The notes beneath the pieces are model-generated. The model was not told the DNA's origin. It saw only the letters and a program-made list of their open reading frames with translations, and searched no databases. Made by a program: the position numbers and the translations under genes. This document shows positions 2,484 to 19,160 of a stretch of DNA of 19,626 nt, piece after piece (position 1 is the stretch's first letter; each line of letters begins with the position of its first letter). Origin of the DNA: Candidatus Heimdallarchaeota archaeon (GTDB lineage Archaea > Asgardarchaeota > Heimdallarchaeia > Heimdallarchaeales > Heimdallarchaeaceae); NCBI GenBank assembly GCA_030668875.1, contig DAOVER010000054.1:1-19626 (forward strand), in the 5' to 3' direction.

Positions 2484-3776
2484 ATGAAGGCTATAATCAA
2501 TGTGAAAATATATGATTATGAAACCTATATTGAAAACGGTTTTTGTATTTATGGTAAAGAGATCAACGCAGTCGGAAATATGAAGAATTTTCCTGATTTT
2601 GATGGTGAAATTATTGACGGTAAGAACAAAATTCTCCTTCCAGGACTTATCAATTCTCACACCCATATCTATTCTACACTTGTTCGAGGAGCTTCCATTC
2701 CTTTTAATCCTAAGAGTTTCAGAGACATTCTAGAACAGCTCTGGTGGAAGTTCGATAGCAAGCTAGATAATACCTCTACTTTCCATAGTGCAATGGTTTA
2801 TGGTTTGGAATCGTTGAAAAATGGTGTAACTTCATTAATAGATCATCATGCAAGTGGAATAGACATTATAGGTAGTATTGAGGCACTAAAGAAAGCTATT
2901 GTTGATAAGCTTGGTATGCGTGGAATTTTCTGTTTTGAGACTAGTGATCGTTTTGATGTTGATGAATGTATTGAAGAAAACTTAGCTGGTTTGGAATATG
3001 ATTCTTTTGACGCTAGTGGAATGTTCGGTTTGCATGCTTCTATGAGTCTTTCAGAAGAAACTCTCGATAAGGTATCTCGAGTTCTCAAAGGTGCTCCTAT
3101 CCATGTTCATGTAGCTGAGAGTATAGAGGATGAAGATGATTCAATTGACAAATATAGGATGAGAGTTATCAATCGTTATCTAAACTACGGTCTTTTGAAT
3201 AAAGATTCTATTCTCGCTCATTGTGTTCATATTAATGAAGATGAAGCTAAATTCATTAGTCAAAATAAAGCTGTTATCGCTCTCAATCCAACTTCGAATA
3301 TGAACAATGCTGTTGGTTCTTTTAACATTGATCTTTTCAGAGATAATAATATCCAAATACTAATAGGAAATGATGGTCTAGGAACTAATATTGCAAAAGA
3401 ATGGACTTACTTCTTCTTTGCAGGAAAAGCTGGAATTAATGATGCAGCAGGAATTGGTTTCGATGAGTTGTTAAAGTATATTAATGATTCATATGACTAT
3501 TTTGGTAGAAGAATGGGTATAAAGATAGGAAAAATCAAGAAGGAATATGTAGCTGATTTTGTGCTAGTTCCTTATATTAATCCCACTGAAATGAATTCTG
3601 GAAATGCTTTTGGTCATGTTTTCTTTGGTTTATTTGACAATTTCAAACCATCTTGTGTGATAGTTAAAGGTGAAACTCTCATAGAGAACTACAAGAGCGT
3701 CTTTGATGAGGAAACATTATATAATAATGCTCGAATTTCTTCTAAAGCCTTATGGAAAAGGTTAGGTGACGTTTAA
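2484..3776 (+). CDS. ssnA: SsnA-like metal-dependent amidohydrolase (chlorohydrolase/aminohydrolase family), purine catabolism-associated
   Basis: Metal-ligand motifs PGLINSHTHIYS, GLHAS, HVHVAE, AHCVH, GNDG. LEQLWWKFD and TSLIDHHASG are typical of the SsnA subfamily. Context next to xdh genes. Confidence 0.85.
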   Translation: MKAIINVKIYDYETYIENGFCIYGKEINAVGNMKNFPDFDGEIIDGKNKILLPGLINSHTHIYSTLVRGASIPFNPKSFRDILEQLWWKFDSKLDNTSTFHSAMVYGLESLKNGVTSLIDHHASGIDIIGSIEALKKAIVDKLGMRGIFCFETSDRFDVDECIEENLAGLEYDSFDASGMFGLHASMSLSEETLDKVSRVLKGAPIHVHVAESIEDEDDSIDKYRMRVINRYLNYGLLNKDSILAHCVHINEDEAKFISQNKAVIALNPTSNMNNAVGSFNIDLFRDNNIQILIGNDGLGTNIAKEWTYFFFAGKAGINDAAGIGFDELLKYINDSYDYFGRRMGIKIGKIKKEYVADFVLVPYINPTEMNSGNAFGHVFFGLFDNFKPSCVIVKGETLIENYKSVFDEETLYNNARISSKALWKRLGDV

Positions 3777-4853
3777 ATGGATCTTTCAGTAAAAATTCTT
3801 GGTTTGCATTTTGAAAATCCTCTTGGTCCAGCAGCTGGTCCTATCGTAGAAGGACTTGAAAATATGCTGTTCTTCAATAATAACACATGTGGTTTTAATG
3901 TTGCTAAGACTATTTCTGTTGAAGGGGCTATTGTTCCTAAGCCATGTATTGCAGGTACTTCAAATACTATCTACAACTGTGAACTTTGGTCTGAGTTGCA
4001 TTCAGATGTCTGGATAAATGAAATTCTTCCAACTATTCACAAAGATAAGAAAAAACCTGTAATCATCAGTGCTGGTTACAAAGAAGAAGATTTTAGATAT
4101 CTTATTCCAAAACTTGATCCTTTTGCGGATATGTTTGAGATTTCTACTCATTATGTTTCAGAAGATCTTCTAGCAGGTATAGTGAAAAGTATCCGAGAAA
4201 ACACTGACAAACCTATTTTTATGAAACTCAGTCCTCATGTAGATGATTTTCTTGGATTTGTCAGAACTGTGATTGATGCTGGAGCTACAGGTATTGTAGC
4301 AATAAATTCACTGGGACCAGGTACAGCAATAGATTTGAAAAAACGTTCAGTTCTTTTAGCTGAGCAAATATGGATGAGTGGTCCTTCAATTAAACCTATA
4401 GCACTTCACAGAATTTACAACATTAGAAAATCATTCCCTGATATACCAATTATTGGTGTTGGAGGTATAGGAAGGGCTGAAGATGTACTTGAATTCATTC
4501 TTGCAGGAGCAGATCTTGTGCAAATGCTTTCTTCTGCCTTAATTAAAGGGAGACATTTGTATGATACAATAATAAAAAATCTTCCAACAGCTCTTGAAAA
4601 ATACGGTTTTTCATCGATTGAAGAGATTAGGAAAATTAGAAAGGAAACTATTTTCAAGGATATAGATACAGCTGTTGATAACTATCCATCTTTCAACGAA
4701 AAGTGTAACATGTGTGGACTCTGTGTTCGTATATGTCCAGCTGGAGCTTTATCTGAGGCAGAAACCATAATTGTAGATAAAGAGAAATGTATACACTGTG
4801 GATTATGTGAATCACGTTGTCCACAAAATGCAATATATGGAGTGCTTAGATGA
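3777..4853 (+). CDS. FMN TIM-barrel oxidoreductase (DHOD/PreA-like fold, YgfK N-terminal-like) with C-terminal 2x[4Fe-4S] domain
   Basis: NPLGPAAGP, KT, FMKLSP, INSLG, MSGPSIKPIAL, PIIGVGGI, AGADLVQ (DHOD-type FMN barrel). Two ferredoxin motifs, CNMCGLCVRICP and CIHCGLCESRCP. No N-x-S-C-P-N catalytic loop (EISTHY instead). ATG directly follows the ssnA TAA; SD AGGTGA at 3764-3769. Confidence 0.8.
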   Translation: MDLSVKILGLHFENPLGPAAGPIVEGLENMLFFNNNTCGFNVAKTISVEGAIVPKPCIAGTSNTIYNCELWSELHSDVWINEILPTIHKDKKKPVIISAGYKEEDFRYLIPKLDPFADMFEISTHYVSEDLLAGIVKSIRENTDKPIFMKLSPHVDDFLGFVRTVIDAGATGIVAINSLGPGTAIDLKKRSVLLAEQIWMSGPSIKPIALHRIYNIRKSFPDIPIIGVGGIGRAEDVLEFILAGADLVQMLSSALIKGRHLYDTIIKNLPTALEKYGFSSIEEIRKIRKETIFKDIDTAVDNYPSFNEKCNMCGLCVRICPAGALSEAETIIVDKEKCIHCGLCESRCPQNAIYGVLR

Positions 4854-6061
4854 ACAATCACATATTGAAATGTATAACTTGTAAAAAAGAATTTGATCCA
4901 AAACCAGGTCTCTATTACTGTGAAGATTGTGGTCAGATTATGGGTACTTTGGAAGTTGTTTATGATTATGATACCTTAAGAGAGGATAATTTTCTAAAGG
5001 AAAGAATTTTTGATAAGAAGGCTTCTATGTATCAGTTTGATTTTCTTCTCCCAACCAAACCAAAATGCAAATTTGATGAGCACATTGGTGGAACACCTTT
5101 GTTCAGATTTGATCTTTTAGGTATCAAGAATGTACTAGTCAAATATGATGGTTCCAATCCATCTAGTTCCTACAAAGATCGTGCAAGTTCAGTTGCTATC
5201 AATAAAGCTCTTGATGAAGGTAACGACATTCTTTTTTGTGCATCAACTGGAAATGCAGCTTCATCATTAGCTACTCTTAATGCTCATACTGATATGAAAA
5301 CATACATTTTCGTTCCTGCATCAATACCAGCTGGTAAGAGAGCTCAACTAGAAATTTCTGGAGCAGAGGTAATGGCAGTTGAAGGAACATACGACGAGGT
5401 TTATGATGTGTCCCTTGAACTTGGACTCAAAAAAGGTTGGTACTGTAGACATGCTGCAATCAATCCCTATCTTCTTGAAGGAAAGAAAACTGGAGCATTT
5501 GAGATAGCTATTCAGAACGATTTTGTTATGCCTGATTATGTTCTTGTAGGAGTAGGTGATGGAACAGTAATTAGTTCTCTTTACAAAGGATTCTGGGAAT
5601 TCAAGGAAATTGGTTTAACAGACAAGATTCCCAGAATCATTGGCGTTCAAGCTGAAGGTATACCTGCGATAAAGGAAGCATTTGATAAAGGAAAACCATA
5701 TACACCTGTATCAATCAAAGGTAAAACTGTCGCTGATAGTATCTCTGTTGGTAAACCACGTGATGTCATTAAAGCATGTACCTATATTGAAGCTTGTAAT
5801 GGTTATTTCATCACTCTGTCAGATGAAGAAATTCTTGATGCAATAACAGAATTAGGGAAAGAAACTGGCTTATTCGCAGAACCAGCTGGAGCTGTACCTT
5901 ATGGTGGGCTGAAAAAACTTATTTACGAAGAAAAAATAACCGAATCAGATACTGTTTGTCTTGTTATTACCGGTAATGGACTTAAAGATGTCAATGCAGT
6001 TGAAGGTTTGATAAACACAGGATCCTTATCAATTAAGGAATTAGAAAAAAGGTTTGAATGA
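4850..6061 (+). CDS. Threonine synthase-like PLP-dependent enzyme (fold type II) with N-terminal CxxC..CxxC zinc ribbon
   Basis: NPSSSYKDR (PLP Lys), ASTGNAASSLA, VGVGDG, ADSISVG, AEPAGA, VITGNGLKD. ATGA overlap with the upstream gene. Confidence 0.85.
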   Translation: MNNHILKCITCKKEFDPKPGLYYCEDCGQIMGTLEVVYDYDTLREDNFLKERIFDKKASMYQFDFLLPTKPKCKFDEHIGGTPLFRFDLLGIKNVLVKYDGSNPSSSYKDRASSVAINKALDEGNDILFCASTGNAASSLATLNAHTDMKTYIFVPASIPAGKRAQLEISGAEVMAVEGTYDEVYDVSLELGLKKGWYCRHAAINPYLLEGKKTGAFEIAIQNDFVMPDYVLVGVGDGTVISSLYKGFWEFKEIGLTDKIPRIIGVQAEGIPAIKEAFDKGKPYTPVSIKGKTVADSISVGKPRDVIKACTYIEACNGYFITLSDEEILDAITELGKETGLFAEPAGAVPYGGLKKLIYEEKITESDTVCLVITGNGLKDVNAVEGLINTGSLSIKELEKRFE

Positions 6062-7431
6062 TGAAGTCAATTCTTAACCAAGAGATAATAAAAATAGATG
6101 AACCATTAGGTAACTCTACACTTGATTTCTTACGAAATAAAGGTATGAAAGGAGTTAAGGAAGCATGTCATGAAGGGGAGTGTGGAGCATGTATGGTGCT
6201 TCTTGGTGAGTTAAAGGATAAAAGTGTAGAATATAAAGCTGTTACATCTTGTCTTCTCCCCCTAGGTGAAATTGTTGGCAAACATATTGTAACAATTGAA
6301 GGATTAAATCAAGAAGACTTGAGTCCCATTCAACAAGCGTTGGTAGATGAAGGAGCAAGTCAATGTGGTTTTTGTACACCAGGATTCGTCGTTAGTTTGA
6401 CTGGATTTTTCCTAAATGAAAAACTTGAGAAAAAAGATATTCTAACATCAATTGAAGGGAATATATGTCGATGTGGAACATATGCTGCGATTATAAGAGC
6501 AGCAGAAAAGTTAGCTAAGGAAATCTCTATGAAGGATAAAAAATCAAAAGAAAGAATCCAACAACTTATTGAAAATCGTATTTTACCTGCCTATTTCTTG
6601 GATATACCTAATCAGCTTGAAAAATTAAAAGAATCGAGTGAAACAAAACTGCCTAAAGAAGGGACTTACGTTGCAGGAGCGACAGATTTGTTAGTTCAGC
6701 ATGAGAGCCTATCTGATCCACTCTTTTTGTCAGAAAAGAAACTTTCTGGAATAAGTTTAGATGGAGAGTACATCTATATTGGTGCAACGACAACTATGGA
6801 AGATATTCGCATTTCAGAAGAGATGAATACGCTTTTCGATACTAAACAAGATATTTCTCTAGTTTCCTCATTTCCTATTAGATTACAAGCTACTTTAGGA
6901 GGTAATCTCGTTAATGCTTCTCCCATTGGGGATCTCATTATCTATTTTCTTGCTCTAGACGCAGAAATAAGTCTTAAGAGTGAAAAAGACAGGAGAATTA
7001 TCAAACTTAGAGATTTCTATAAAGATTATAAAATAATGGATATTAATGAGGGGGAGATAGTTGAATGGCTTAGAATCAATAGTAAAGAGAGGTTATTTAA
7101 CTTTGAAAAAGTAGCGCGAAGGAAATATATGGACATAGCTAGTGTCAATAGTGCTATTTCATTTGATTTGAACAATGATAAAATACAAAACGTTCATTTA
7201 TCTGCTGGAGGAGTAGCTCCTGTTCCTAAGTATCTGGAAAAAACTTCTGACTATCTTGAGAACAAGAAGATCTCAGAAGATATACTAAAAGAAGCTGTAA
7301 AAATTGCTGATTCTGAGATTAATCCCATAGATGATGTTCGGGGATCAGCTCGTTATAAGAGATTACTCTTTAGACAGTTAATTTATGCTCATTTCTTAAC
7401 ACTATTTCCTGATTTGGAGGTATCACTATGA
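6058..7431 (+). CDS. xdhA: Xanthine dehydrogenase small subunit, fused 2x[2Fe-2S] + FAD-binding domains
   Basis: GVKEACHEGECGAC..C and SQCGFCTPG..GNICRCG (2Fe-2S); VAGATDL, ATLGGNLVNASPIGD and PIDDVRGSARYKR (FAD domain). ATGA overlaps on both sides. Confidence 0.93.
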   Translation: MMKSILNQEIIKIDEPLGNSTLDFLRNKGMKGVKEACHEGECGACMVLLGELKDKSVEYKAVTSCLLPLGEIVGKHIVTIEGLNQEDLSPIQQALVDEGASQCGFCTPGFVVSLTGFFLNEKLEKKDILTSIEGNICRCGTYAAIIRAAEKLAKEISMKDKKSKERIQQLIENRILPAYFLDIPNQLEKLKESSETKLPKEGTYVAGATDLLVQHESLSDPLFLSEKKLSGISLDGEYIYIGATTTMEDIRISEEMNTLFDTKQDISLVSSFPIRLQATLGGNLVNASPIGDLIIYFLALDAEISLKSEKDRRIIKLRDFYKDYKIMDINEGEIVEWLRINSKERLFNFEKVARRKYMDIASVNSAISFDLNNDKIQNVHLSAGGVAPVPKYLEKTSDYLENKKISEDILKEAVKIADSEINPIDDVRGSARYKRLLFRQLIYAHFLTLFPDLEVSL

Positions 7432-9668
7432 AGGATCTAATTTCTCCTCACACTCGTGGTGAATCGATTTATATTGATGATATTCCTGAACCAATCAATC
7501 TACTATATGCTGTAGTCTTCACATCAGATATTCCGCACGGAAAAATCATCTCCCTTGATATAACAAAAGCGGAGAACAGTGAAGGTGTTTGTAAAGTTCT
7601 TATCGCTAAAGATATCCCGGGAGAAAATCAAATAGGACGTCTTATTCAGGATGAAGAACTCCTTGCAGAGAAAGAAGTTGATTTTATAGGTCAACCAATT
7701 GCAGTAGTTTTAGCTGAAACAAAAGAGCAAGCTAAACTAGCGATTAAGTTAATTAACATTGAATATGAGGGACTTCCTGCTGTTTTCGACTCTCGTGAAG
7801 CAGCAAGAAAAGGATTACTGATTTCTTCTTCACGCACCTTAACGATTGGAGATATTGAATCAACTTGGGAAAAATGTTCAACTGTTATCGAAGGAATAGC
7901 TGAGTCAGGGGGTCAAGAACATGTATATCTTGAAACACAAGCTTCGCTAGCTATACCAGATGAAAATGGCAGAATAATCATTTATTCTAGTACTCAAGCA
8001 CCTACAACAGTTCAAAGTACAACTTCAAAAATTCTAGGATGTGATATGAACTTAATTGAGGTTGATGTGAAACGACTAGGTGGAGCTTTTGGTGGAAAGG
8101 AAGACCAGGCTACACCATGGGCAGCTATTTGTGCACTTGGAGTTTATCATACAGACCGACCAGTGAAGCTAGTTCTTACTAGACGTGAAGATATCATTAT
8201 GACGGGTAAACGTCATCCCTACTCAACTGATTATAAGATAGGTCTAGATGAAGAAGGTAAAATACTTGCTTTTTCTGCTGAGTTTTATCAAAATTCAGGA
8301 GCTGCAGCTGACCTTTCTACAGCTGTTCTTGGACGAACACTTTTTCATGCAACTAATGCTTACTATATCCCTAATGTCCGTGTAACAGGCTATCCATGTA
8401 AAACTAATATCGTTCCTTTCACTGCTTTCAGGGGTTTTGGTGGTCCTCAAGGAATGTTTGTTATAGAATGTGCTATTGCACATGCTGCTGAAGTAACAGG
8501 TATTCCAGTTGCAGTTTTACAAGAGAAAAACTTACTCCAAGATGGAGATCAATTTCATTATGGGCAGCAAGTTGAGAATTGTAACGCAAAGCGAAGTTTT
8601 TCTCAAGTTGTTAAAGATACTAATTTTGAAAAAAGAAAAAAGGAGATAGATGATTTTAACACAAATAATCGATTTACTAGAAAAGGTATCTCCATAATGC
8701 CCATTTGTTTTGGGATTTCATTCACTTCTTCTTTTCTTAATCAAGCTGGAGCTCTTGTTAATGTTTACAAGGATGGAAGTGTAAGCATTAGTACAGGCGC
8801 AATTGAAATGGGTCAAGGGGTTAACGTTAAAATCAGACAAATCGCAGCAAAAACCCTTTCAATTAATCCCGAAAGGATTCGGATAGAAAGTACAAGTACT
8901 AGTCGGGTAATTAATACTTCACCAACTGCTGCAAGCACTGGGACTGACCTTAATGGAAAAGCAGCAGAGATAGCTTGTAATAAGATAATAGATCGATTGA
9001 AAAATGCTGCAGCAGAGAAGTTAGGTACAAATGCCATTTCAATAGAAAATGAGTATGTCTATCAAGACGGAAAAAGAACAGAGATCTCTTGGAGAAAACT
9101 TGTCAATTTAGCTTATTTACAAAGAGTTAATCTTTCTGCTCAAGCATTTTATGCGACACCTAGAATTCATTTTGATACTAAAAAAGAGAGAGGAAGACCT
9201 TTTGCTTACCATGCTTATGGAACAGCAGTTACAGAAGTAACTGTTGATTGCTTAAGAGGGACATATACAATTGATAAAGTTCAAATGGTTCACGATGCAG
9301 GAAAAAGTCTTAACTATCTTATAGATTTAGGACAGGCTGAAGGAGGATTAATTCAAGGAATCGGCTGGATGACTATGGAAGAGTTAGTCTTCGAAAAAGG
9401 AAAAAACTTTACAGATTCCTTATCAACATATAAAATACCTAACCTTTATTTCACTCCTAAGATTGAAGTTACTTTTCTAGAAGATGCCGAAAATCCAGAA
9501 GCTGTTTTGAAATCAAAAGCTATTGGAGAACCCCCCTTCATGTATGGAATAGGTACTTACTTCGCACTAAAGAATGCTGCTAGAGCATTTCGTAAAGATA
9601 AGGAATGGGAATATTCATCTCCTCTGACACCAGAAAAACTCTTACTCTATCTTCATGATTTGGAGTAA
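7428..9668 (+). CDS. xdhB: Xanthine dehydrogenase molybdopterin-binding large subunit
   Basis: GGQEHVYLE, SSTQAP, RLGGAFGGKE, AFRGFGGPQG, EMGQG, PTAASTG, GQAEGG and KAIGEPP (catalytic Glu). SD GGAGG at 7416-7420. Confidence 0.95.
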   Translation: MKDLISPHTRGESIYIDDIPEPINLLYAVVFTSDIPHGKIISLDITKAENSEGVCKVLIAKDIPGENQIGRLIQDEELLAEKEVDFIGQPIAVVLAETKEQAKLAIKLINIEYEGLPAVFDSREAARKGLLISSSRTLTIGDIESTWEKCSTVIEGIAESGGQEHVYLETQASLAIPDENGRIIIYSSTQAPTTVQSTTSKILGCDMNLIEVDVKRLGGAFGGKEDQATPWAAICALGVYHTDRPVKLVLTRREDIIMTGKRHPYSTDYKIGLDEEGKILAFSAEFYQNSGAAADLSTAVLGRTLFHATNAYYIPNVRVTGYPCKTNIVPFTAFRGFGGPQGMFVIECAIAHAAEVTGIPVAVLQEKNLLQDGDQFHYGQQVENCNAKRSFSQVVKDTNFEKRKKEIDDFNTNNRFTRKGISIMPICFGISFTSSFLNQAGALVNVYKDGSVSISTGAIEMGQGVNVKIRQIAAKTLSINPERIRIESTSTSRVINTSPTAASTGTDLNGKAAEIACNKIIDRLKNAAAEKLGTNAISIENEYVYQDGKRTEISWRKLVNLAYLQRVNLSAQAFYATPRIHFDTKKERGRPFAYHAYGTAVTEVTVDCLRGTYTIDKVQMVHDAGKSLNYLIDLGQAEGGLIQGIGWMTMEELVFEKGKNFTDSLSTYKIPNLYFTPKIEVTFLEDAENPEAVLKSKAIGEPPFMYGIGTYFALKNAARAFRKDKEWEYSSPLTPEKLLLYLHDLE

Positions 9669-9708
9669 TGGTTTGATTTTGTCTTATTGGCTTATAACAA
9701 AATCTTTC

Positions 9709-10971
9709 TTAGAGTTTCATTGCCGGATAGCTCACTCTGAGGGGGTAAACCACATACCCTCCTACCCCGCCCACACTACGTTGAGGTAGTGCTTGCGGAT
9801 CGCCTTTAAGTAAAATGTTGTAGGCAGCATTAACATCAGCATTGATTAATAATCCTGTTGCAGAACGAAACAATCCTCGGTGAACCCTTTTCCCCTTATA
9901 GTTAGTCTGTTTCTTTGGGAATTCATTGTCTATGAAACTACATTTAGAGGTATAAGACTCATCAATAGGTTCAACATTTATCCCTTTCTCTTCTGCCTTG
10001 TAAGTGAGGAGTTTGATGAGTTTGTCAAAGGGGACGATAACAAAGAGTTGGGTAGTCTTCTTTCTCAACTTCAATTGCTGTTTCCAGAGAGGGTTGTATC
10101 CAATATACACGGTGTGTAAGCCTCTTGTTTCCCAGAGGTCAACGAGGAATTTGCTAACTTTGTGTAACCAATCCCTCACCTTCCATCTCCAATGTTGACG
10201 GAGATGAAGGAAGCTTGAACCGTACTGTAATCGAGTGTTCTTTTGACGTAACTGTTTATGTTGCTGTGCTGTATATTGCTGTTGTAACTTTTTTACTTCT
10301 TTCAGATAATATTGTGTGAGTGACTTTATCCCTTTCCCCTCGTCCTTGATGACAATCGGACGCGATCCGATGTTATCCACGAAAGTCACGAGGTTGATTA
10401 GCCCTAAATCGATAGAACCTTTCTTTTTCTTCTTCTTTCTAATTGCTTTAGGAAGGTGTTTGTGATAAACAAGCTCTACTGTGTAACCTATCCCTCTGGG
10501 GATGATGCGCACTTCTCGCAAGTCATCCTGAGCCGTTAATCGGGTCTTGATAGTAAAGTTAACTTTCTTTGGTAACAATACCCACCCATTAGCAATTTTT
10601 GCTTGTTGGTTGCTGAAGATAGCTATTGTCTCCCCCGTAGGTTTCTTGAAATAGGGAGCACAAGGACAGCTGAGGAATTTGCTAGGCTGTCTCTTCCATT
10701 CTTTCAGAGCGTAGAAGTAAGCTTTCCAGTTCCTTGACAGCAATTTGAGTGCGTGTTGAGCGGTATGGGCAGGTAAAAGTTTGTAACACTACTCTCCCTT
10801 TAAGAGCCTATCTAAGTCGTTGTAGAACAACAATTTATTGTTTTTCTTCAACTCTTCTTTTATCAGAAAGTTTCCTCGATTATAGAGATTCTTCGTTTGA
10901 TGACAAAGTTTGCTTAACTCTTTGTTTCTTCTTACTTCCATTATCTCTGTCAGCAAGACTTTTGTCATCAT
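9709..10971 (-). pseudogene. tnpB: TnpB RNA-guided nuclease interrupted by one in-frame TAG (10789-10791)
   Basis: ORFs 10789..10971 and 9709..10743 share a frame. Reading through gives ...KLCHQTKNLYNRGNF...LLKGE*CYKLLPAHTAQHALKLLSRNWKAYF..., then RuvC-I SIDLGLINL, LTYKAEEKGINV, DESYTSKCS and RuvC-III INADVNAAYNI. Total 420 codons plus stop. Confidence 0.9.
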
Positions 10972-10990
10972 ACTTCTCTTTAGCTTTCCC

Positions 10991-10998
10991 TATATAAA
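10991..10998 (-). promoter_or_regulatory. Candidate archaeal TATA box for tnpB (TTTATATA); the + strand TATATAAA could alternatively serve xdhC
   Basis: Centre lies about 23-26 nt upstream of the ATGs at 10971/10968, the spacing expected for a leaderless archaeal transcript. Confidence 0.35.
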
Positions 10999-11060
10999 CT
11001 CAGAAAAAACTAATAAGACAGCAAGACAAATTACTTTCATAAATCAAAACTAAAGTAAAG

Positions 11061-12032
11061 ATGTTTGTTATGAATGAAAAACAATTTTGGGAAATGGTTC
11101 TAGATACTCTGGAAAAAGGAAATAGTGCAGTACTTGTTGTTATAATCGATAAGAAAGGGTCTGGACCAAACTTACCTGGAGCAAAGATGTTTGTAACATT
11201 AAATGAAGTGAGTGGAACTGTAGGAGGAGGAATCTCTGAACTTAATTTACTAAATCATGCTAGGAGATTGTTGAAAGAAGGAAAGATTGCCACTGAAACT
11301 ATCCTCCTAGAACACAGTGAAACTGCAGAAGAAAATCGTTCAGGTATGATCTGTTCTGGTTCGCAGACTTTCGCATTAGTTCCTCTATCAACTTTGGATA
11401 AGAGCACTATCAAAGCAATAATAGAAGCTTATGATGAAGTAAAAACAGGCCTAATTGCCATAAGCGAAAAAGGAATCAGTTTTGATAGAAACAAATCTTT
11501 AACGGAAGATAGAGTTTTTTCCACGGAAAACGAAATATGGTCGTATCAAGAAAATATTGCACAGCAAAATAAGCTCTTTATTATAGGAGGGGGGCATGTA
11601 TCACTAGCTTTATCTCGGGTCATGAAAACATTGGGTTTTCATATTACAGTCTATGAAGATAGAGAGAATCTACCAACCATGAACAGCAACACATTTGCTC
11701 ACAAAAAGGAAATTCTAAGTTATGACGATATTGCTGGAAATATCCCAGAAGGAGACAATATCTATATTACAGTAATGACTTTTAGACATTTTTCAGATGA
11801 AAATGTACTTGAGAGGATTATTTCTAAGAAGTGCAGATATATTGGAATGTTAGCAAGTGTAAAAAAAGCAGAAACAATTTTTTCCAATCTTGATAAAAAG
11901 GGAGTTTCAAAGAAACTACTTGATATGGTTCACTCTCCCATTGGTATAAAAATCCAAAGCAATACTCCTGAAGAAATTGCAATAAGCATCGCAGCTGAAA
12001 TTATCCTCACTAAAAATTCTAATCTCAGATGA
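11061..12032 (+). CDS. xdhC: XdhC/CoxI family molybdenum-cofactor sulfuration/insertion accessory protein
   Basis: KGSGPNLPGAKM..GTVGGG, GMICSG, KLFIIGGGHVS, VYEDR, VMTFRHFSD, YIGMLAS, VHSPIGIKIQSNTPEEIAISIAAEII. Alternative start at ATG 11070. Confidence 0.92.
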   Translation: MFVMNEKQFWEMVLDTLEKGNSAVLVVIIDKKGSGPNLPGAKMFVTLNEVSGTVGGGISELNLLNHARRLLKEGKIATETILLEHSETAEENRSGMICSGSQTFALVPLSTLDKSTIKAIIEAYDEVKTGLIAISEKGISFDRNKSLTEDRVFSTENEIWSYQENIAQQNKLFIIGGGHVSLALSRVMKTLGFHITVYEDRENLPTMNSNTFAHKKEILSYDDIAGNIPEGDNIYITVMTFRHFSDENVLERIISKKCRYIGMLASVKKAETIFSNLDKKGVSKKLLDMVHSPIGIKIQSNTPEEIAISIAAEIILTKNSNLR

Positions 12033-12086: not shown

Positions 12087-15000
12087 TTAAATGAAACGTT
12101 TTCTTAGAAGGTATTTTTTGTTAACAAGGGTAAAAACTGTGTTTAAAATATCATGTAGTTCCATATTTTGGAATTCTGTAATAATTTTACTAACTGAAAC
12201 AGATTCAGACTTCATTATATAGTTAGCAATTTTCACATCAATATTTTTTAGTTTCTTAATGTCCTTCTTCTTCTTATCATTCACTTGTAGTGGGAAGAAT
12301 AGCCAAATATACAGAGTTTCAGCAATTTTGTCTTGAATTAGATTCTTCTTTTCAACATAAGGATCCATTTTACCATCCCATACACCCTCTATTGAGAAGG
12401 AATATTCAAACCACATTATTAAATCAAACAATCTAGAAGTAAGTTCACCGTTTAACTCCTCAGATGAAAACATGAAAACTGAATAGAGGTCAGAGCTTGC
12501 TGTATTAACCACAAAGTTTCGGTATTCTAACTTCTTAATTCCACCGGTACCTATTCCACCAATTTGTTTACCCATTGAAGCAACAACTGAGAGAAATCCT
12601 GTTATCAGAGAAGTATCTACATTATTCTTGTATTCAATATCATATTCAAATACTGGGAGACTTGTCTCATTGTGAATGAATAGAATCTTTCTAAGAGACA
12701 AGATATTTTCAAACAAAGATACAAGATTAGACCCTTCAGAAACGTCAACAACAACACCACCTTTCCCTTTTCTAGATCCAACAACAACAATAATAGATAT
12801 TATTCCGATTAAAGCGATTGAACCACCAATAATTATCCCAATCAGATATGGAGGAAGTTCAGGGGGGGGGTAGTAGGGGGGGGAGTAGTAGGGGGGGCTG
12901 TTACTTGATTGATTATAACATCAAATGTTGTTTCAAGTTTCTCATTGCTATAACTGGATTTGAAATGTAATTTTGATATTTCCAATATTAAATCAAATTC
13001 ATTGAATCGAATTGCTTGAGAGGAGATAATGACATAGTTAATCCCATCTTCATAATTTACATAATAATCTTCTTGAGCTACTATTGCTCCTTGGATTATT
13101 ATTGATAACTCGCTTTTCGTTACCTCCATTGGGTTTCTGTTTGTGTCAGTTTCATTAATTAGTCTAAAGGATAGAACTAAATCTTCAGTAGTGTTGGTTT
13201 CTATAGAAGTTTCTATAGGTTCTACAGAGAATACATTGAATATTTCAAGATTAAGAACCACATGGTGATTTTCTAGTAATATATTTGTTGTAGTAAGTTC
13301 AATTGTGTAAGAACGCGCAGTAATATTATCATCAAAAGTAATGCTGTGATAATTATCACTTGAGGTTAAATTCCCAGCATCTCCCCAACTTGTTTGGTAC
13401 TCAATTGTGGTGTTTTCTATTATTTCACCATAACTAGTAAAGAATGGTTCACTTAGCTTGTAATAACTACTATTAATAAAGAGTTCATCTCCATTCTGTC
13501 GAACGATAGTTTGGGTCACGTTATTTATCCAATTAGTGTTATCAGGAATTTCCTCCCATTCAACATTGAAGTGAGTAGAAGCTTGGACGTAAACTGTTTG
13601 AGAAAAGATACCTATTTCAGTACCATTATTCCAATAAACAAGTGCTGTCCATATTCCTTCAAGGTCGCTTCCATAAACAGAAGGATCAAGAGTTATTTCG
13701 GATGAATATACTCCTGGACTATCTTGTGTAGAATCTAGAAGAGTATATGAGGACAAATCAGTATAAGTTAAATTGGTTGGAAGACTTGTTTTTAGAGGGA
13801 TTATCTCTCCATCTGGGTTGAATAAAGTAAAGTTTAGTGTCCCTGAAATAGAATTTTCTATAAGCGTTATTGTTGAGTAAATTGTAGAGCCCTCATAACC
13901 TGTAGCATTTATTCCATCTGTAGTCCAATGACCTAAGGAATACAGATTTGTTTGCTCTTCTCCATCTGATAATTCCAGTGATTGAATGAAATTAGAACTT
14001 GAAGTTTCTAGCCTAAAATTCCCAGCTGATATATTAGAACCTAAATAACAGAGATATGTGTCACTATACTGTATGGTTGAAAAGGTATCCGTATCATTAT
14101 AATAACAAATTGGACTATCGTACCAGTCACTTATCGTTGCTACCTGAATTATTCTATCAAAAATCGAGTATGGTAAAGGATTTACTATTGACACGTCCCA
14201 AGTTACGTTCCAATGTATTGAGTAAGCTCCTGCTGTTGAGTTAAATGCTGTATAGAAAGAATCAGCTGTAATCGAATTGGTGAAACTATATGAGTTGTTA
14301 AACATTATTTCTAAAGAAGTGTCACTCGTCAAATTATGTAGACCTATCGAAGTAATCTGTGAATCTATATCTTGGATATCATCACCGTTATCCTTCATTG
14401 TAATTGTATTTAAATCTTGAAATTCCATTGCAGAACCAGTTTGATTTGAAGGTAATAATTCAACATTTAAAGTAAAATCAACAGATGGAAGATAATTCCA
14501 AGTTAATAGATTGTCCATGTAATATGAATCACCGAGATATGGGGACACTGAATTACTATGCCAGAAATAGAATTTAGGACCTATTGAAGTGATATCTGTA
14601 AAGGTTGCAATAACATAATACTTCCCTTGATCAAGAATTTTATCTGTAAAATCATAATACAAGAATCCTGGAATAATGGGATTAGAAGTGTTATAAGGTC
14701 CATCAACACTTGATGAGTAAATTTGACTCATATTAGGTTGACCAGAAATTTCATCCGCTTTGACAATAATTAAGTCAAAATCATTTATTCCAGTCTGGCT
14801 TCCACCTGTACTCAGATGAAGTTCTGCTCCATAAAACATTGCATACTCCCAAGGAACGTTGAAACTTTGCGCTATAGCATATTTAGTACTGTCTAGATGA
14901 TCGTCACCATCTTCTTCAAGTTCAATTGGATAATAATCTTGTTTTGCAAGAACTTGGGTCATATTGTAGTTTAACAAAGAAGAGTCGTAAGCTGAAGTGA

Positions 15001-15343
15001 TATCAGTATTAGTGAAATTATCTTCAAAATATCCTGTTAACGAATTATATGTTAAATTCAGAGAAAAATCATCATAAACAGTTAGTATATCTTCAACATC
15101 AAAAGTATTTCCTGAACCACTTAGATTTGTTACAGGTGTATAAAGATATGAACTTAAATCTTCGAGTAAATTTGAGACTTGATCTACAGGATTAGTTTTT
15201 TCTAGATTATCTCTAACAAAGTAATCATTAGAATTTGTAGCAGTTATGCCTTTTAGGCTTGTGAGTGTAATGGAAAATATAATTAAATAAGCCAATATGA
15301 TTATAGATGGAACTTTTGACCCTTTCGATAAACCCTTAAACAT
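12087..15343 (-). pseudogene. Receptor-like membrane protein (ectodomain - PTT linker - TM - longin-like - winged helix), about 1085 aa, split by a frameshift in a poly-C tract near 12862-12897
   Basis: ORF 12842..15343 ends TAPPTTPPPTTPPLNFLHI*. Adding one C continues PELPPYLIGIIIGGSIALIGIISIIVVVGSRKGKGG (TM)...SLFENILSLRKILF, open and in frame with ORF 12087..12716. Collinear with the intact paralog 15521..19066. Could be a true frameshift, a phase variant or a sequencing error. Confidence 0.85.
12862..12897. repeat. Three homopolymer tracts (G9, G8, G7 on +; poly-C on the coding strand) separated by TAGTA/AGTAGTA
   Basis: G 12862-12870, G 12876-12883, G 12891-12897; encode a Pro/Thr juxtamembrane linker. 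Confidence 0.95.
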
Positions 15344-15520: not shown

Positions 15521-18500
15521 TCAAGTAGCAGCATCGTTATTGTTTTTCTTCAGTTTTTCTTCTTTCACCATGGTCAATATTCTTTCAAGAAGATATTCGT
15601 TAGAGTATTCATCAAGTTGATCCATTATTAGAGCTGTAGTAGCTTTACCTTTACTATTGATAAATGATACAATCTCTTGGTCTATTGTTTTGAGTTTATC
15701 AATCTCTTCTAATGTTTTGGGAGTTACTTGTAATGGGAACATGAACCACAAGAATAGTTCTTCTACTACTTTTTCATTTATGCTTTCCTTATATTCGTTA
15801 AATATATCCATTGATCCTTCCCATTTTGTGCCCTCGTACCCGAAAATCACATCAAACCACCTTACAAGGTTATCTAATCCTTGTTCAAACTCAACTTCTA
15901 ATTCTGTGTCTGAGAAAATATATGCTGTATACGCTCCACTTGAAGCACTTGTTACAACAAAATTATAGTATTCAATTTTCTTAATACCTGTTCTTGCACC
16001 ACTCATTTCCGCGCCTATTGATGATATTGCTTGAAGTACTCCACTGATTATTGATGGATCTAACTCTTCTCTTTCATCCAAACTATATTCATAAATTGGA
16101 GAACTAGTTTCATGATGAACAACGAGTACACGTTTTATCATAAATGCAGATTGGAAGATAGCTCGAGCTTTTGATTTTTGCTCATCAAGTTCTTCCTTTT
16201 TCTTGCTCATTTGTGTTTTAGTAAAGAAGAAAACGCCAACCCCTAGTCCAGCAACTGCAACTAACGATAGTCCAATGATCACGCCTATCGGTAATTCTCC
16301 ATTTGGAGGAGGAGTAATAGTTGATGTTTTTATACTAATTGTAGCAAGAATAAAACTCAGCACTGATTCATATCCTTCTTTAGATACTGAAACTCTAACG
16401 TTTAGAGTTTTAATAGTGGGTTCTTGTATTCGAATTTTAATAGTGTATATTCCATCATCCTCTGAATTTTCTGTTATATCTACATCAGGTTCAGGAATAT
16501 CCAAAGTTACAACTACATTTGCTCCTTTTATTTGTTCAGAATGAGTTTCATCTATCCATTCAAAAGTCAAAGTTATCTGACTGCTTTCATTTGCTTCAGT
16601 AACAGTTGCTATTGTTTCAATAGAAGTATCCTCAACAGCTGTGATATCATAATTGATTGTATTTGATGCTATCGGATTACCTAGTGTTTCAACAAAATAG
16701 ATCTTCTGAACAGAGATTTCTACTTCATAACTTGCAGGTAAGTTGTCTAATACATCATTATAGATAGTTAACAAGAAGTGATCATCGACCCTAACACCCA
16801 TGTATTCAACCATTGGTGTTAATGAAGTTCCGTTTATTGCTACATGTATGGAAAGGTTGTTAGTAATTGGAGCACTTCCATTTGTTACATCTACAACAGA
16901 AAATGTAAATTCTGCGTTGTCAGTGTAATAATACACCGGATCTACAGATTGAGGTTCAAGGACACGGAACTCGTGTAGTAATATCAAAGAAAATTGATCT
17001 GAACAAGATTGTAAGAATGGTCCTTTTGCAAATATATCTATGAGATAGGACCCTTCTGTTATATTTGGTGCTAAACTATAACTGTAATTTCCTGAATCAA
17101 ATGCAAGATTATCTGTATCTAGCCAACTTGTTGTATAGTAAACATCTCCATTAGGAATGTATGTTCCTAAACCTGTAAAGAATGGGTCGCTGATATTGTA
17201 GTAACTAACTTTGATGTTAATTGCTTCACCATTTATTCTTGTAATCTCAGTAGAGGATAATTCTAACCAGTTTCCTCCTACTTCTTCTTCTACGAAGAAT
17301 GAAGCCGATGTTGGTTTGACAACAGTAATTGTTTGAGTGAAAAGTCCTGCTTCAGTACCATTTGTCCAATAATAAACCACCGTCCAATATCCTTCAGCAT
17401 CTGATGCTGATATAGACGGATCAAATGTAACATTAGCTTTGAAAAGTGAATCCTCTGTATAAGCATTTTTAGTGTAGGAAGAATTATCTAGATAGATAAG
17501 ATTAACAGGCAATGAGCTCTTCAGTGGAAGTATATTTCCATTACTATCCAATACTGAATAATTTAGTGCCCCCCCGCTCGTTATGTAATTTTCTATGCTT
17601 GCGGTCGACATTATTGTCGTTCCTTCAAATCCAAATGCGTGTGTCTCATTATTTGTCCAGTATCCTAACTCTTGAATCGTATCACTTATGGACGTCGTCG
17701 TGATGTAATTTGGACTTGTAATCGTGAACTCAAAGTTTCCGCTATCATATTGGGTTATGTTAAATAAGATAGATAAATCATACTCAAAAACATCTCCAAC
17801 CCAACTTCCAGATATTGGAGTCCCTCCATTCAATAAAAATGAGAAAGCTGTTTTATTCCAATCATTTGGAACAGAAAATGCTTGAAATCTAGTAGGGTTT
17901 GTATATGTTCCCAGACTCACAATATCTGTAGTCCAAGAATGAGTCCAAGTGTTACTATACTCATTATATGTAGAATTAAGAAGATCAATTACCGAGGTAG
18001 AAGTGTAAGTTCTACTAAATTGATAACTACTGTTCGATTTAAGGATAACAGCCTTATTTGATGTCAATATATGAAGCCCAGTTCCACTAATAATTTGATC
18101 GAGCGTTGTAACATTTAATCCATTATCAGTTAGATACACTGTTGTTGGATCCGGATATGTTAGGGGATTTCCATCACTATCCGTTTCCTGTAGATAAGCT
18201 TCAAAATTTAGTGTCCTTGCATGTGGATTATCAAAATTCCAACTGCTGCCATCATGATAGTAAATCCTATATGATAGTGTTTGTCGAGATGCCCAAGATA
18301 TACCAGTGCCATCATCTCCATCATATGATGATAGATTAGCAACTACAAAATAAGATCCTGAACTCAAAACATTAGTGCTGAATTCAAAATAAGCTATATT
18401 ACCTGTACTGCTTGTGGGAAATGGGTTTGATGTACTATATGGGTCGCTGGTATCGTTTGCCAATATTGCACTCATATTAGGAAAACCAAAACCATCCTCT

Positions 18501-19066
18501 TCAACTAAGAAAAGTTCTAGTTCATCTGAACCATAACTACCTCCATAAAGATCAAACCATATCTGAGCACCTTTAAAGATAGCATAACTTGTTGATATAT
18601 CAAACTTGAATGCATATCTTATTCTTGTTGACTCTAAAGCTTCTTCTACTAACTTATTTGGCTCTAAAAGAAAGTAAGTTTCCTTATCAACAGCACTCTC
18701 CAGACTTAAATTGTATTGTAGATTATCAACTGAATAACCAGAAGGTGTTGTTATAGTATAAGAATCATTATTATTATTATCTGCATCAAGCGTGATGTTA
18801 ACGGAATCATATACAGCTAAAGTATCATCAATAATAGAAGAATCACCAGAATCCGAGAAACTATCAATAGGAGTATAATCATATTTAATTCGGTTGGTCA
18901 AATCCGAAGTATTTGGTGAAATGTTATCATCATTAATAATATTTGAAAAAGAATCTATGTAGAAATTGTTAAGATTATTTTCTAATAGAATTGGTGATAC
19001 AAGTGAAAATGTGAAAAGCGCAATAATTGTATATGATAAATTTTTTTTGTTGCTATTATGACCCAT
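15521..19066 (-). CDS. Intact receptor-like single-pass membrane protein: signal peptide, large beta-rich ectodomain with many N-x-S/T sequons, TM, longin-like domain, winged helix
   Basis: N-terminal KKNLSYTIIALFTFSLVSPILL; TM IGVIIGLSLVAVAGLGVGVFFF followed by basic residues; cytoplasmic KRVLVVHHETSSPIYEY..DPSIISGVLQAISSIGAEM..GIKKIEYYNFVV..YTAYIFS..LDNLVRWFDVIF (longin beta-beta-alpha-beta-beta-beta-alpha pattern); C-terminal three-helix wHTH-like segment. ATG 19066 preferred over TTG 19078. Confidence 0.88.
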   Translation of the reverse strand: MGHNSNKKNLSYTIIALFTFSLVSPILLENNLNNFYIDSFSNIINDDNISPNTSDLTNRIKYDYTPIDSFSDSGDSSIIDDTLAVYDSVNITLDADNNNNDSYTITTPSGYSVDNLQYNLSLESAVDKETYFLLEPNKLVEEALESTRIRYAFKFDISTSYAIFKGAQIWFDLYGGSYGSDELELFLVEEDGFGFPNMSAILANDTSDPYSTSNPFPTSSTGNIAYFEFSTNVLSSGSYFVVANLSSYDGDDGTGISWASRQTLSYRIYYHDGSSWNFDNPHARTLNFEAYLQETDSDGNPLTYPDPTTVYLTDNGLNVTTLDQIISGTGLHILTSNKAVILKSNSSYQFSRTYTSTSVIDLLNSTYNEYSNTWTHSWTTDIVSLGTYTNPTRFQAFSVPNDWNKTAFSFLLNGGTPISGSWVGDVFEYDLSILFNITQYDSGNFEFTITSPNYITTTSISDTIQELGYWTNNETHAFGFEGTTIMSTASIENYITSGGALNYSVLDSNGNILPLKSSLPVNLIYLDNSSYTKNAYTEDSLFKANVTFDPSISASDAEGYWTVVYYWTNGTEAGLFTQTITVVKPTSASFFVEEEVGGNWLELSSTEITRINGEAINIKVSYYNISDPFFTGLGTYIPNGDVYYTTSWLDTDNLAFDSGNYSYSLAPNITEGSYLIDIFAKGPFLQSCSDQFSLILLHEFRVLEPQSVDPVYYYTDNAEFTFSVVDVTNGSAPITNNLSIHVAINGTSLTPMVEYMGVRVDDHFLLTIYNDVLDNLPASYEVEISVQKIYFVETLGNPIASNTINYDITAVEDTSIETIATVTEANESSQITLTFEWIDETHSEQIKGANVVVTLDIPEPDVDITENSEDDGIYTIKIRIQEPTIKTLNVRVSVSKEGYESVLSFILATISIKTSTITPPPNGELPIGVIIGLSLVAVAGLGVGVFFFTKTQMSKKKEELDEQKSKARAIFQSAFMIKRVLVVHHETSSPIYEYSLDEREELDPSIISGVLQAISSIGAEMSGARTGIKKIEYYNFVVTSASSGAYTAYIFSDTELEVEFEQGLDNLVRWFDVIFGYEGTKWEGSMDIFNEYKESINEKVVEELFLWFMFPLQVTPKTLEEIDKLKTIDQEIVSFINSKGKATTALIMDQLDEYSNEYLLERILTMVKEEKLKKNNNDAAT

Positions 19067-19160
19067 TATAATCCCCAAAGATATGCTTCTAGTTTATATG
19101 TTAATTTTACTTTAAATCTTTATTCTTTATATTTATTACGTAGGTGCAAATAGTTGATAC

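Follow-up and report, generated by a model that had tools for sequence, protein, structure and literature searches.

In this work we analysed a 19,626-nucleotide stretch of DNA (the window) from a Candidatus Heimdallarchaeota archaeon, and we propose, with a probability that we put at roughly three in four, that the operon which it carries is the core of a reductive urate (2,8-dioxopurine) pathway for anaerobic purine catabolism, in an archaeal version of the UacX type. This reading is built from the identities of the genes, the structure of the operon, its synteny with bacterial operons, its conservation and the purifying selection acting on it, all of which are observed. The window is the complete 19.6-kb contig C7 of the host genome (G000), a 3.2-Mb metagenome-assembled genome (MAG) that is 92% complete. 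Comparisons were made within a set of 30 Heimdallarchaeaceae genomes that includes the host (the family) and, more widely, among 399 Asgard genomes.

On the forward strand, genes follow one another for an SsnA-like amidohydrolase [2484–3776, 430 amino acids (AA)], a UacX-like reductase (3777–4853, 358 AA), a PALP-family enzyme resembling threonine synthase (ThrC-like; 4850–6061, 403 AA) and the xanthine dehydrogenase (XDH) subunits XdhA (6058–7431, 457 AA) and XdhB (7428–9668, 746 AA). The sixth gene, xdhC (11061–12032, 323 AA), also on the forward strand, is separated from xdhB by a TnpB-only insertion sequence (IS) of the IS200/IS605 type (about 9668–11030), in which the tnpB open reading frame (ORF) occupies 9709–10743 on the reverse strand (NF040570 guided_TnpB, 108 bits). 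As read from the sequence, the TAA stop codon of ssnA abuts the ATG of uacX, and the three following junctions are ATGA overlaps. The initial annotation had described five translationally coupled genes with xdhC beyond an IS, and had assigned them to anaerobic purine/urate degradation; the ORFs and their junctions are as it described them, and the assignment agrees both with the SsnA/UacX pair discussed below and with the collinearity of the gene block with bacterial urate-type operons. All six ORFs of the operon are intact, the five-gene unit from ssnA to xdhB is conserved across the family, and the ratio of non-synonymous to synonymous substitutions (dN/dS) among genomes of the host genus is about 0.05–0.25 for all six genes.

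The contig is archaeal and not a binning contaminant, because the loci closest to it are from Heimdallarchaeota, because an SsnA orthologue is found in most of the family, single-contig genomes included, and because a gene for a Ras-family GTPase lies after xdhC in the relative G012. The closest XdhB loci belong to Heimdallarchaeota MAGs (73–95% identity), the next best being bacterial (55–60%), and close homologues of SsnA and of the pyridoxal phosphate (PLP) enzyme are labelled 'Candidatus Heimdallarchaeaceae' or 'Asgard group'. The SsnA orthologue (at least 57% identity) is present in 24 of the 29 other family genomes, two single-contig genomes among them, and was not found outside Heimdallarchaeaceae in the 399 Asgard genomes searched. 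The archaeal-looking genome of the initial annotation is thus that of a member of Heimdallarchaeaceae.

An ssnA gene next to uacX or ygfK is a marker of the reductive urate pathway (PMC12507026), and in the window the gene of an SsnA-family amidohydrolase directly abuts that of a PF01180/Fer4 reductase. In an NCBIfam profile search the SsnA-like protein scores 342 bits with NF005540, its best match, compared with 123 bits for the next family. Its identity to E. coli SsnA is 29% along the entire sequence, the HxH, H, H and D metal motifs being aligned, and rises to 50–55% with the UacX-adjacent 'SsnA' proteins of Clostridia and Thermotogota. In a tree, the SsnA sequences from Heimdall genomes group together as a single clade (99% support) beside a clade of Clostridia and Thermotogota, and dN/dS for ssnA is 0.06–0.11. 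The reductase is composed of a DHO_dh domain (PF01180) and two 4Fe-4S motifs (Fer4), scores under the PyrD and PreA cut-offs, and has no flavin adenine dinucleotide (FAD)/NAD(P)H domain. It had first been annotated as a YgfK-like flavin mononucleotide (FMN)/iron–sulfur (FeS) protein. We rejected the YgfK identity, as the similarity to E. coli YgfK is only remote (E 8e-5), and the build, with FMN and FeS but without a FAD/NAD(P)H domain, is that of UacX/PydAc. UacX is described as a PF01180 protein with FMN only, a homologue of PydA that takes the place of YgfK in C. difficile (PMC12507026). The window protein is 47–53% identical to the DHO_dh/Fer4 protein encoded after ssnA in Fonticella, Thermosipho, C. 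botulinum C and Dethiosulfatibacter, and we regard it as a putative UacX-type reductase, C. difficile UacX itself (Q181U4) having been compared by its published description only.

These genes belong to a longer gene order that is found in bacteria. In Dethiosulfatibacter aminovorans (L118) and on a metagenome contig (L119) the operon reads YgeY-OTC-PALP470-Hyd-SsnA-UacX-ThrC-like-XDH, and shorter forms of it are present in Thermosipho, Marinitoga, Fonticella and C. botulinum C. Seven proteins are 44–67% identical between the Heimdall and bacterial operons, while the molybdenum (Mo) subunit is only 24–28% identical. The order is the same in the single-contig Heimdall genome G053, where a stretch of 19 kb holds the genes for MocA, a Se-XDH-family enzyme, YgeY (632 bits, cut-off 321), a carbamoyltransferase, a CysK-like PALP enzyme, a hydantoinase, SsnA, UacX, ThrC-like, XdhA, XdhB and XdhC. 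The Hyd-SsnA-UacX-ThrC-like block was probably acquired from Clostridia/Thermotogota-like bacteria and joined to a different, two-subunit XDH; uptake of a bacterial operon in which the three-subunit XDH was then swapped for XdhAB is the simplest reading. A bacterial origin is parsimonious because the distribution within Asgard archaea is narrow, whereas bacterial relatives at 50–60% identity are widespread; the direction of transfer would follow from this distribution rather than from a rooted tree. Acquisition from bacteria had already been suggested in the initial annotation, which also saw the cluster as reshuffled; that second idea has to be abandoned, since the bacterial gene order of L118 and L119 is kept.

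Candidate genes for the steps that the window lacks were found in the host genome on contig C61. This contig carries, besides mocA, genes for a 877-AA DOPDH-type Mo enzyme with FeS and Mo domains (TIGR03311 865 bits, cut-off 830), a carbamate kinase (53% identity to YqeA), a YgeW-like carbamoyltransferase (36% to YgeW, 51% to the Thermosipho operon OTC), an aspartate carbamoyltransferase (ATCase)-like enzyme (13604–14557; L092) that adjoins the carbamate kinase, a flavin-reductase-like protein and a hydantoinase (16257–17588; 31% to HyuA, 45% to the Thermosipho operon gene). The hydantoinase is 45–53% identical to those encoded before ssnA in the bacterial operons and in G053. Both a HyuA-type hydantoinase and a YgeW (plus YqeA)-type enzyme for the 2-ureido group are therefore encoded in the genome. 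In the relatives G001, G004 and G012, genes of the C61 type lie 6–25 kb upstream of ssnA on one contig. The pathway genes have a single candidate transporter gene nearby, of the APC family (C61 993–2324), whose position upstream of mocA is conserved. The initial annotation had noted that hyuA, ygeW and ygeY are absent from the window and had deduced that they lie elsewhere or that the route differs: the former applies to hyuA- and ygeW-like genes, which are on C61 with the carbamate kinase gene, and the latter to ygeY and dpaL/ygeX, which a search of the genome did not recover.

The published route starts with the conversion of urate to 2,8-dioxopurine by XdhD/DOPDH, followed by reduction by YgfK, or by UacX in C. 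difficile; it goes on with ring opening by SsnA and with the action of HyuA, of YgeW (with YqeA) or UacY, and of YgeY, and it ends with the release of pyruvate by YgeX (PMC12507026; bioRxiv 10.1101/2025.04.24.650524). For the Heimdall pathway, we infer the substrate of every enzyme and the electron donors as follows. XdhAB, matured by XdhC, would convert hypoxanthine and xanthine to urate, from which the DOPDH-type Mo enzyme of C61, with MocA, would strip the 6-oxo group to give 2,8-dioxopurine. UacX would then reduce the 2,8-dioxopurine ring with a low-potential electron donor, SsnA would open the reduced ring by hydrolysis, and the C61 hydantoinase would open the second ring to yield 2,3-diureidopropionate. 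The YgeW-like carbamoyltransferase and the carbamate kinase would turn one ureido group into ATP; the second ureido group, removed by YgeY in relatives, would here probably be removed by the ATCase-like carbamoyltransferase, and the ThrC-like enzyme would most likely free pyruvate and ammonia from the leftover C3 amino acid.

The ThrC-like protein, a fold-type II PLP enzyme with an N-terminal CxxC...CxxC ribbon, shares with threonine synthase its fold, the PLP lysine and a TIGR00260 score above the cut-off (195 compared with 167). It differs, however, at five positions that are invariant in the four solved threonine synthases to which we aligned 120 operon-type family members (T. thermophilus numbering): T88 is replaced by A, N154 by S or A, S155 by A and N188 by D in 120/120 sequences, and R160 by L in 117/120, while K61, the PLP lysine, is retained. 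We take these five residues to be those that hold the substrate phosphate in ThrC; a literature search on the ThrC phosphate-site residues returned nothing usable. If they do bind phosphate, the anion site of the ThrC-like enzyme would have turned neutral or acidic, and such a site would suit substrates that carry a beta-amino or ureido group, for example diaminopropionate and albizziin. We propose that the ThrC-like enzyme may be the terminal lyase, with 2,3-diaminopropionate or albizziin as its substrate. Its gene holds the same operon position in bacteria (56–60% identity) and the enzyme belongs to the pathway, because its place before the XDH genes is fixed in many bacterial operons, in which it takes the PLP slot. 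Moreover, the window provides no hom or thrB context, and a second ThrC gene is present on contig C85 of the host genome. As the genome also carries a separate PyrB, the clustered carbamoyltransferase and ThrC-like copies are extras.

The XDH module is composed of XdhA, with two [2Fe-2S] clusters and FAD (Fer2, Fer2_2, FAD_binding_5 and CO_deh_flav_C domains), the molybdopterin subunit XdhB (TIGR02965) and XdhC (XdhC_CoxI and XdhC_C domains). The best solved match of XdhB is bovine xanthine oxidoreductase (XOR; E 1.6e-169), and by hand count the residues aligned with bovine E802, R880, R912, F914, F1009, T1010 and E1261 are conserved. XdhB is predicted to be a canonical hypoxanthine/xanthine dehydrogenase because all the catalytic and xanthine-binding residues are kept, and the domain build and the XdhC partner are likewise those of such an enzyme; XdhC would be the sulfuration/insertion chaperone that supplies XdhAB with molybdenum cofactor (Moco). 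dN/dS is 0.07–0.10 for xdhB and 0.14–0.26 for xdhC, and identity with the relatives is 93–95% for XdhB and 57–75% for XdhC. In a tree of archaeal and bacterial sequences, the nearest relatives of XdhB are from Acidobacteriota, Aminicenantes, Ignavibacteriota and Bacteroidota (55–60% identity). In the free tree, a quick one, families f1 and f3 fall apart among bacteria and f3 XdhB groups with Bacteroidota; an approximately unbiased (AU) test of a single archaeal XdhB clade gave p = 0.0504, so that neither a single nor a double acquisition can be claimed. In the sister family f3 (L120–L123), xdhC-xdhA-xdhB is not accompanied by ssnA, uacX or the PLP gene.

Several observations weigh against the assignment of the operon to the reductive urate pathway. 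First, several of its proteins score under the curated cut-offs of the families to which we assign them: SsnA-like (NF005540 342 versus 444 bits, TIGR03314 310 versus 455), XdhA (TIGR02963 314 versus 467), XdhB (TIGR02965 815 versus 849.5) and the C61 hydantoinase (TIGR02033 287 versus 393); the SsnA proteins of the bacterial operons are likewise under the SsnA cut-off (332–400 bits). The C61 DOPDH candidate shares only 24% identity with E. coli XdhD. Second, searches of the host genome did not find YgeX (best TIGR01747 match 45 bits, cut-off 274; no tblastn match to E. coli YgeX), YgeY (best match a generic ArgE/DapE M20 protein, 143 bits, cut-off 321), an NCS2/AzgA purine permease (E. coli queries), SelD, YqeB and YqeC, or the Moco synthesis proteins MoaA, MoaC, MoaE, MoeA and MoaB, for which the initial annotation had suggested that the genome be searched. 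Third, the TnpB insertion cuts xdhC off from the rest of the operon.

An alternative is that the same logic, reduction followed by hydrolysis, lets the SsnA/UacX/PLP trio break down a different N-heterocycle (a pyrimidine, another oxopurine, or xanthine directly) without passing through 2,8-dioxopurine. UacX has the PydA/dihydroorotate dehydrogenase fold and SsnA is described as PydB-related (PMC12507026), the Heimdall SsnA belongs with its bacterial operon relatives to a sub-clade whose scores stay under the SsnA equivalog cut-off and whose identity to the E. coli enzyme, which has been assayed, is only 29%, and the selenium trait tied to bacterial DOPDH is absent. We nevertheless consider such a route unlikely: the partners of these genes in the bacterial and G053 operons make up a purine set (a true YgeY with 582–632 bits, a YgeW-like carbamoyltransferase, a hydantoinase and XDHs), the TIGR03311 enzyme linked to the operon is above its cut-off, and XdhB has the xanthine-specific residues.

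A second alternative would have XdhAB produce urate as an antioxidant for oxygen tolerance, next to genes that are functionally unrelated. In a cultured Hodarchaeales strain an expressed Xdh was read as a source of urate for scavenging reactive oxygen species, an aerotolerance trait; Heimdallarchaeia Xdh was found to be monophyletic, and the antioxidant reading was applied to the eukaryotic ancestor (bioRxiv 10.1101/2025.02.26.640444). The f3 xdhCAB genes, which stand without ssnA, uacX and the PLP gene, would fit such a role. In Heimdallarchaeaceae, however, the PLP gene ends in a stop codon that xdhA overlaps, and all five genes are coupled into a single unit throughout the family; bacterial urate-degrading operons, where the same PLP gene is followed by an XDH, are collinear with this unit, which is also linked to a urate-consuming branch (DOPDH-type enzyme, hydantoinase, carbamoyltransferase and carbamate kinase). 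The antioxidant explanation is very improbable for this family, and in these archaea Xdh comes last in a urate-consuming operon, which speaks for a role in catabolism and suggests that it serves feeding and not oxygen protection. It is also most improbable that the operon is a decaying relic, with Mo enzymes left inactive by the absence of MoaA, MoaC, MoaE and MoeA, and with the IS between xdhB and xdhC and the strong divergence of xdhC as the onset of loss, since all ORFs are intact, dN/dS is 0.05–0.25 across genus genomes that all lack Moco synthesis, and the same genomes retain 4–8 AOR genes and a MopB enzyme.

The missing YgeY and SelD can be considered at the level of the family. YgeY is absent from most of the host genus, and true YgeY is encoded in 8/30 family genomes, the ATCase-like protein in 13/30 and both in 0/30. 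As the family genomes are related to one another, this exclusivity may reflect a single replacement event. The ATCase-like enzyme may be a non-orthologous replacement of YgeY, which would give a second ATP per urate. SelD is found in 0/30 family genomes, the two single-contig genomes included, whereas every bacterial strain with the cluster carried SelD and YqeBC (bioRxiv 10.1101/2025.04.24.650524).

The lack of Moco synthesis is shared by most of the family, as MoaC and MoeA are present only in the G053/G054 genus and are missing from the other 28 of the 30 genomes. In G053 they are part of a cassette of MoaC, MoaA, MOSC, MoeA and MoaB (L124:9025–12651), for which tblastn gave no match in the host genome. 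A binning error is unlikely because the cassette is missing at two syntenic places, within a gap-free stretch (18964–31974) of the 83-kb contig C15, where relatives have it. Nonetheless, AOR-family genes are present in 30/30 family genomes (8 matches in the host, 4–8 in genomes of its genus) and a MopB-family enzyme in 27/30, including the host, which therefore has about eleven genes for pterin-dependent enzymes (2 of the XDH family, 8 AOR-family matches and MopB). Pterin cofactors must be available to these cells, because the same genomes keep the AOR genes and the MopB enzyme. ModA is uninformative as a molybdate marker, being absent even from genomes with Moco genes. The XDH-family enzymes are kept under purifying selection with only the cofactor-tailoring helpers XdhC and MocA, and scavenging would be the most direct explanation for purifying selection on Mo enzymes in genomes that lack Moco synthesis. 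We thus put forward tentatively, at somewhat less than even odds, the idea that the genus lost Mo/W cofactor synthesis and lives on pterin cofactor scavenged from partner cells. Such a habit, if true, would be in keeping with the syntrophic way of life of Asgard archaea. We know of no prokaryote that has been shown to live on scavenged pterin cofactor, and a literature search on Moco auxotrophy in prokaryotes or Asgard archaea returned nothing usable.

In relatives, xdhC lies about 25–35 bp downstream of xdhB and the TnpB insertion is absent from that spacer. The closest copy of the insertion is on contig C59 of the host genome (82.6% identity across 9668–11030). More than 25 related copies of this TnpB-only IS family are present in the genome, many of them at contig ends, and the IS expansion therefore probably accounts for the fragmented assembly. 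Synonymous divergence (dS) from G012 (L013) is a mosaic along the operon: the first three genes (ssnA, uacX and the PLP gene) stand at about 0.8, the XDH subunit genes xdhA and xdhB at about 0.3 and xdhC at 2.2. Such unevenness suggests recombination between strains inside the operon.

The other genes of the window are all on the reverse strand. A beta-propeller (SBBP repeat) gene occupies the left end (1–1536) and has many tandem paralogues in the relative G001. To the right of xdhC, three ORFs of 209 AA (12087–12716), 833 AA (12842–15343) and 1185 AA (15521–19078) gave no significant match in Pfam, NCBIfam or PADLOC. Away from the window, the CysK-like PLP enzyme of 470–487 AA is conserved in the G053 cluster (L113:1590–3053) and in the bacterial operons (L118:2983–4392; L119:2947–4359), and has a homologue in the host genome on contig C58 (48489–49706). 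We rejected C58 as a purine cluster: besides the CysK-like PALP gene, it carries an M20 gene of the generic ArgE/DapE type.

The reductive urate pathway was worked out in 2025, in bacteria only and mostly in gut Bacillota, with no mention of archaea (PMC12507026; bioRxiv 10.1101/2025.04.24.650524), and our literature search found no paper linking Asgard archaea to SsnA or to this pathway. The system proposed here is new, as an archaeal variant of a known pathway, characterized by its host, its two-subunit XDH, the absence of YgeX, the probable replacement of YgeY in the lineage, and the absence of SelD, YqeB and YqeC, that is, a version of the pathway without any selenium trait. It would add purines, probably from the nucleic acids of necromass, to the substrates of Asgard archaea, and it offers a testable alternative to the oxygen-tolerance reading of Heimdallarchaeia Xdh that is used in arguments about the eukaryotic ancestor. 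It also draws attention to two uncharacterised enzymes, the ThrC-like PLP enzyme and the ATCase-like carbamoyltransferase, and leaves as a separate puzzle the absence of Moco synthesis genes from a genome with so many genes for pterin-dependent enzymes.

The XdhAB proteins of the window resemble R. capsulatus XDH (1JRO) and bovine XOR in their domain order, in the residues for catalysis and substrate and in having XdhC as a partner, but they are embedded in an anaerobic urate-consuming operon. Hodarchaeales Xdh is an enzyme of the same type from the same archaeal class; it was given an antioxidant role, whereas Heimdallarchaeaceae Xdh is part of a catabolic operon.

With the E. coli ygeW-xdhD cluster (Li et al. 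2025, PMC12507026), the Heimdall genes share SsnA, an XDH-family enzyme with MocA, and HyuA-, YgeW- and YqeA-type proteins, and the logic of both systems would be the same: dehydroxylate, reduce, open two rings and remove two ureido groups. The two differ in the reductase, which in E. coli is the 1032-AA NAD(P)H-dependent YgfK and in the archaeon the 358-AA FMN/FeS UacX type, in the absence of YgeX, YgeY, YqeB, YqeC and SelD from the host genome, and in the low identity of SsnA (29%) and XdhD (24%). In C. difficile (PMC12507026) and C. sporogenes (bioRxiv 10.1101/2025.04.24.650524) an FMN-only UacX is found beside SsnA, as in the window, and clostridial DOPDH, about 850 AA long, combines FeS and Mo domains in one polypeptide, a build that the 877-AA C61 enzyme shares. 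However, the clostridial pathway is selenium-dependent (SelD, YqeBC) and no SelD was found in the 30 Heimdall family genomes; the 2-ureido group is cleaved off in C. difficile by a hydrolase, UacY, in contrast with the carbamoyltransferase and carbamate kinase of the Heimdall set; and the clostridial hosts are bacteria while the Heimdall host is an archaeon. Finally, in the uncharacterised bacterial operons of the YgeY-OTC-PALP470-Hyd-SsnA-UacX-ThrC-like-XDH type the gene order is that of the Heimdall operon, with the ThrC-like gene directly before the XDH genes, but the bacterial XDH has three subunits (FAD, FeS and Mo), whereas the window encodes a fused FeS–FAD XdhA together with XdhB, as in the R. 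capsulatus/eukaryote type.

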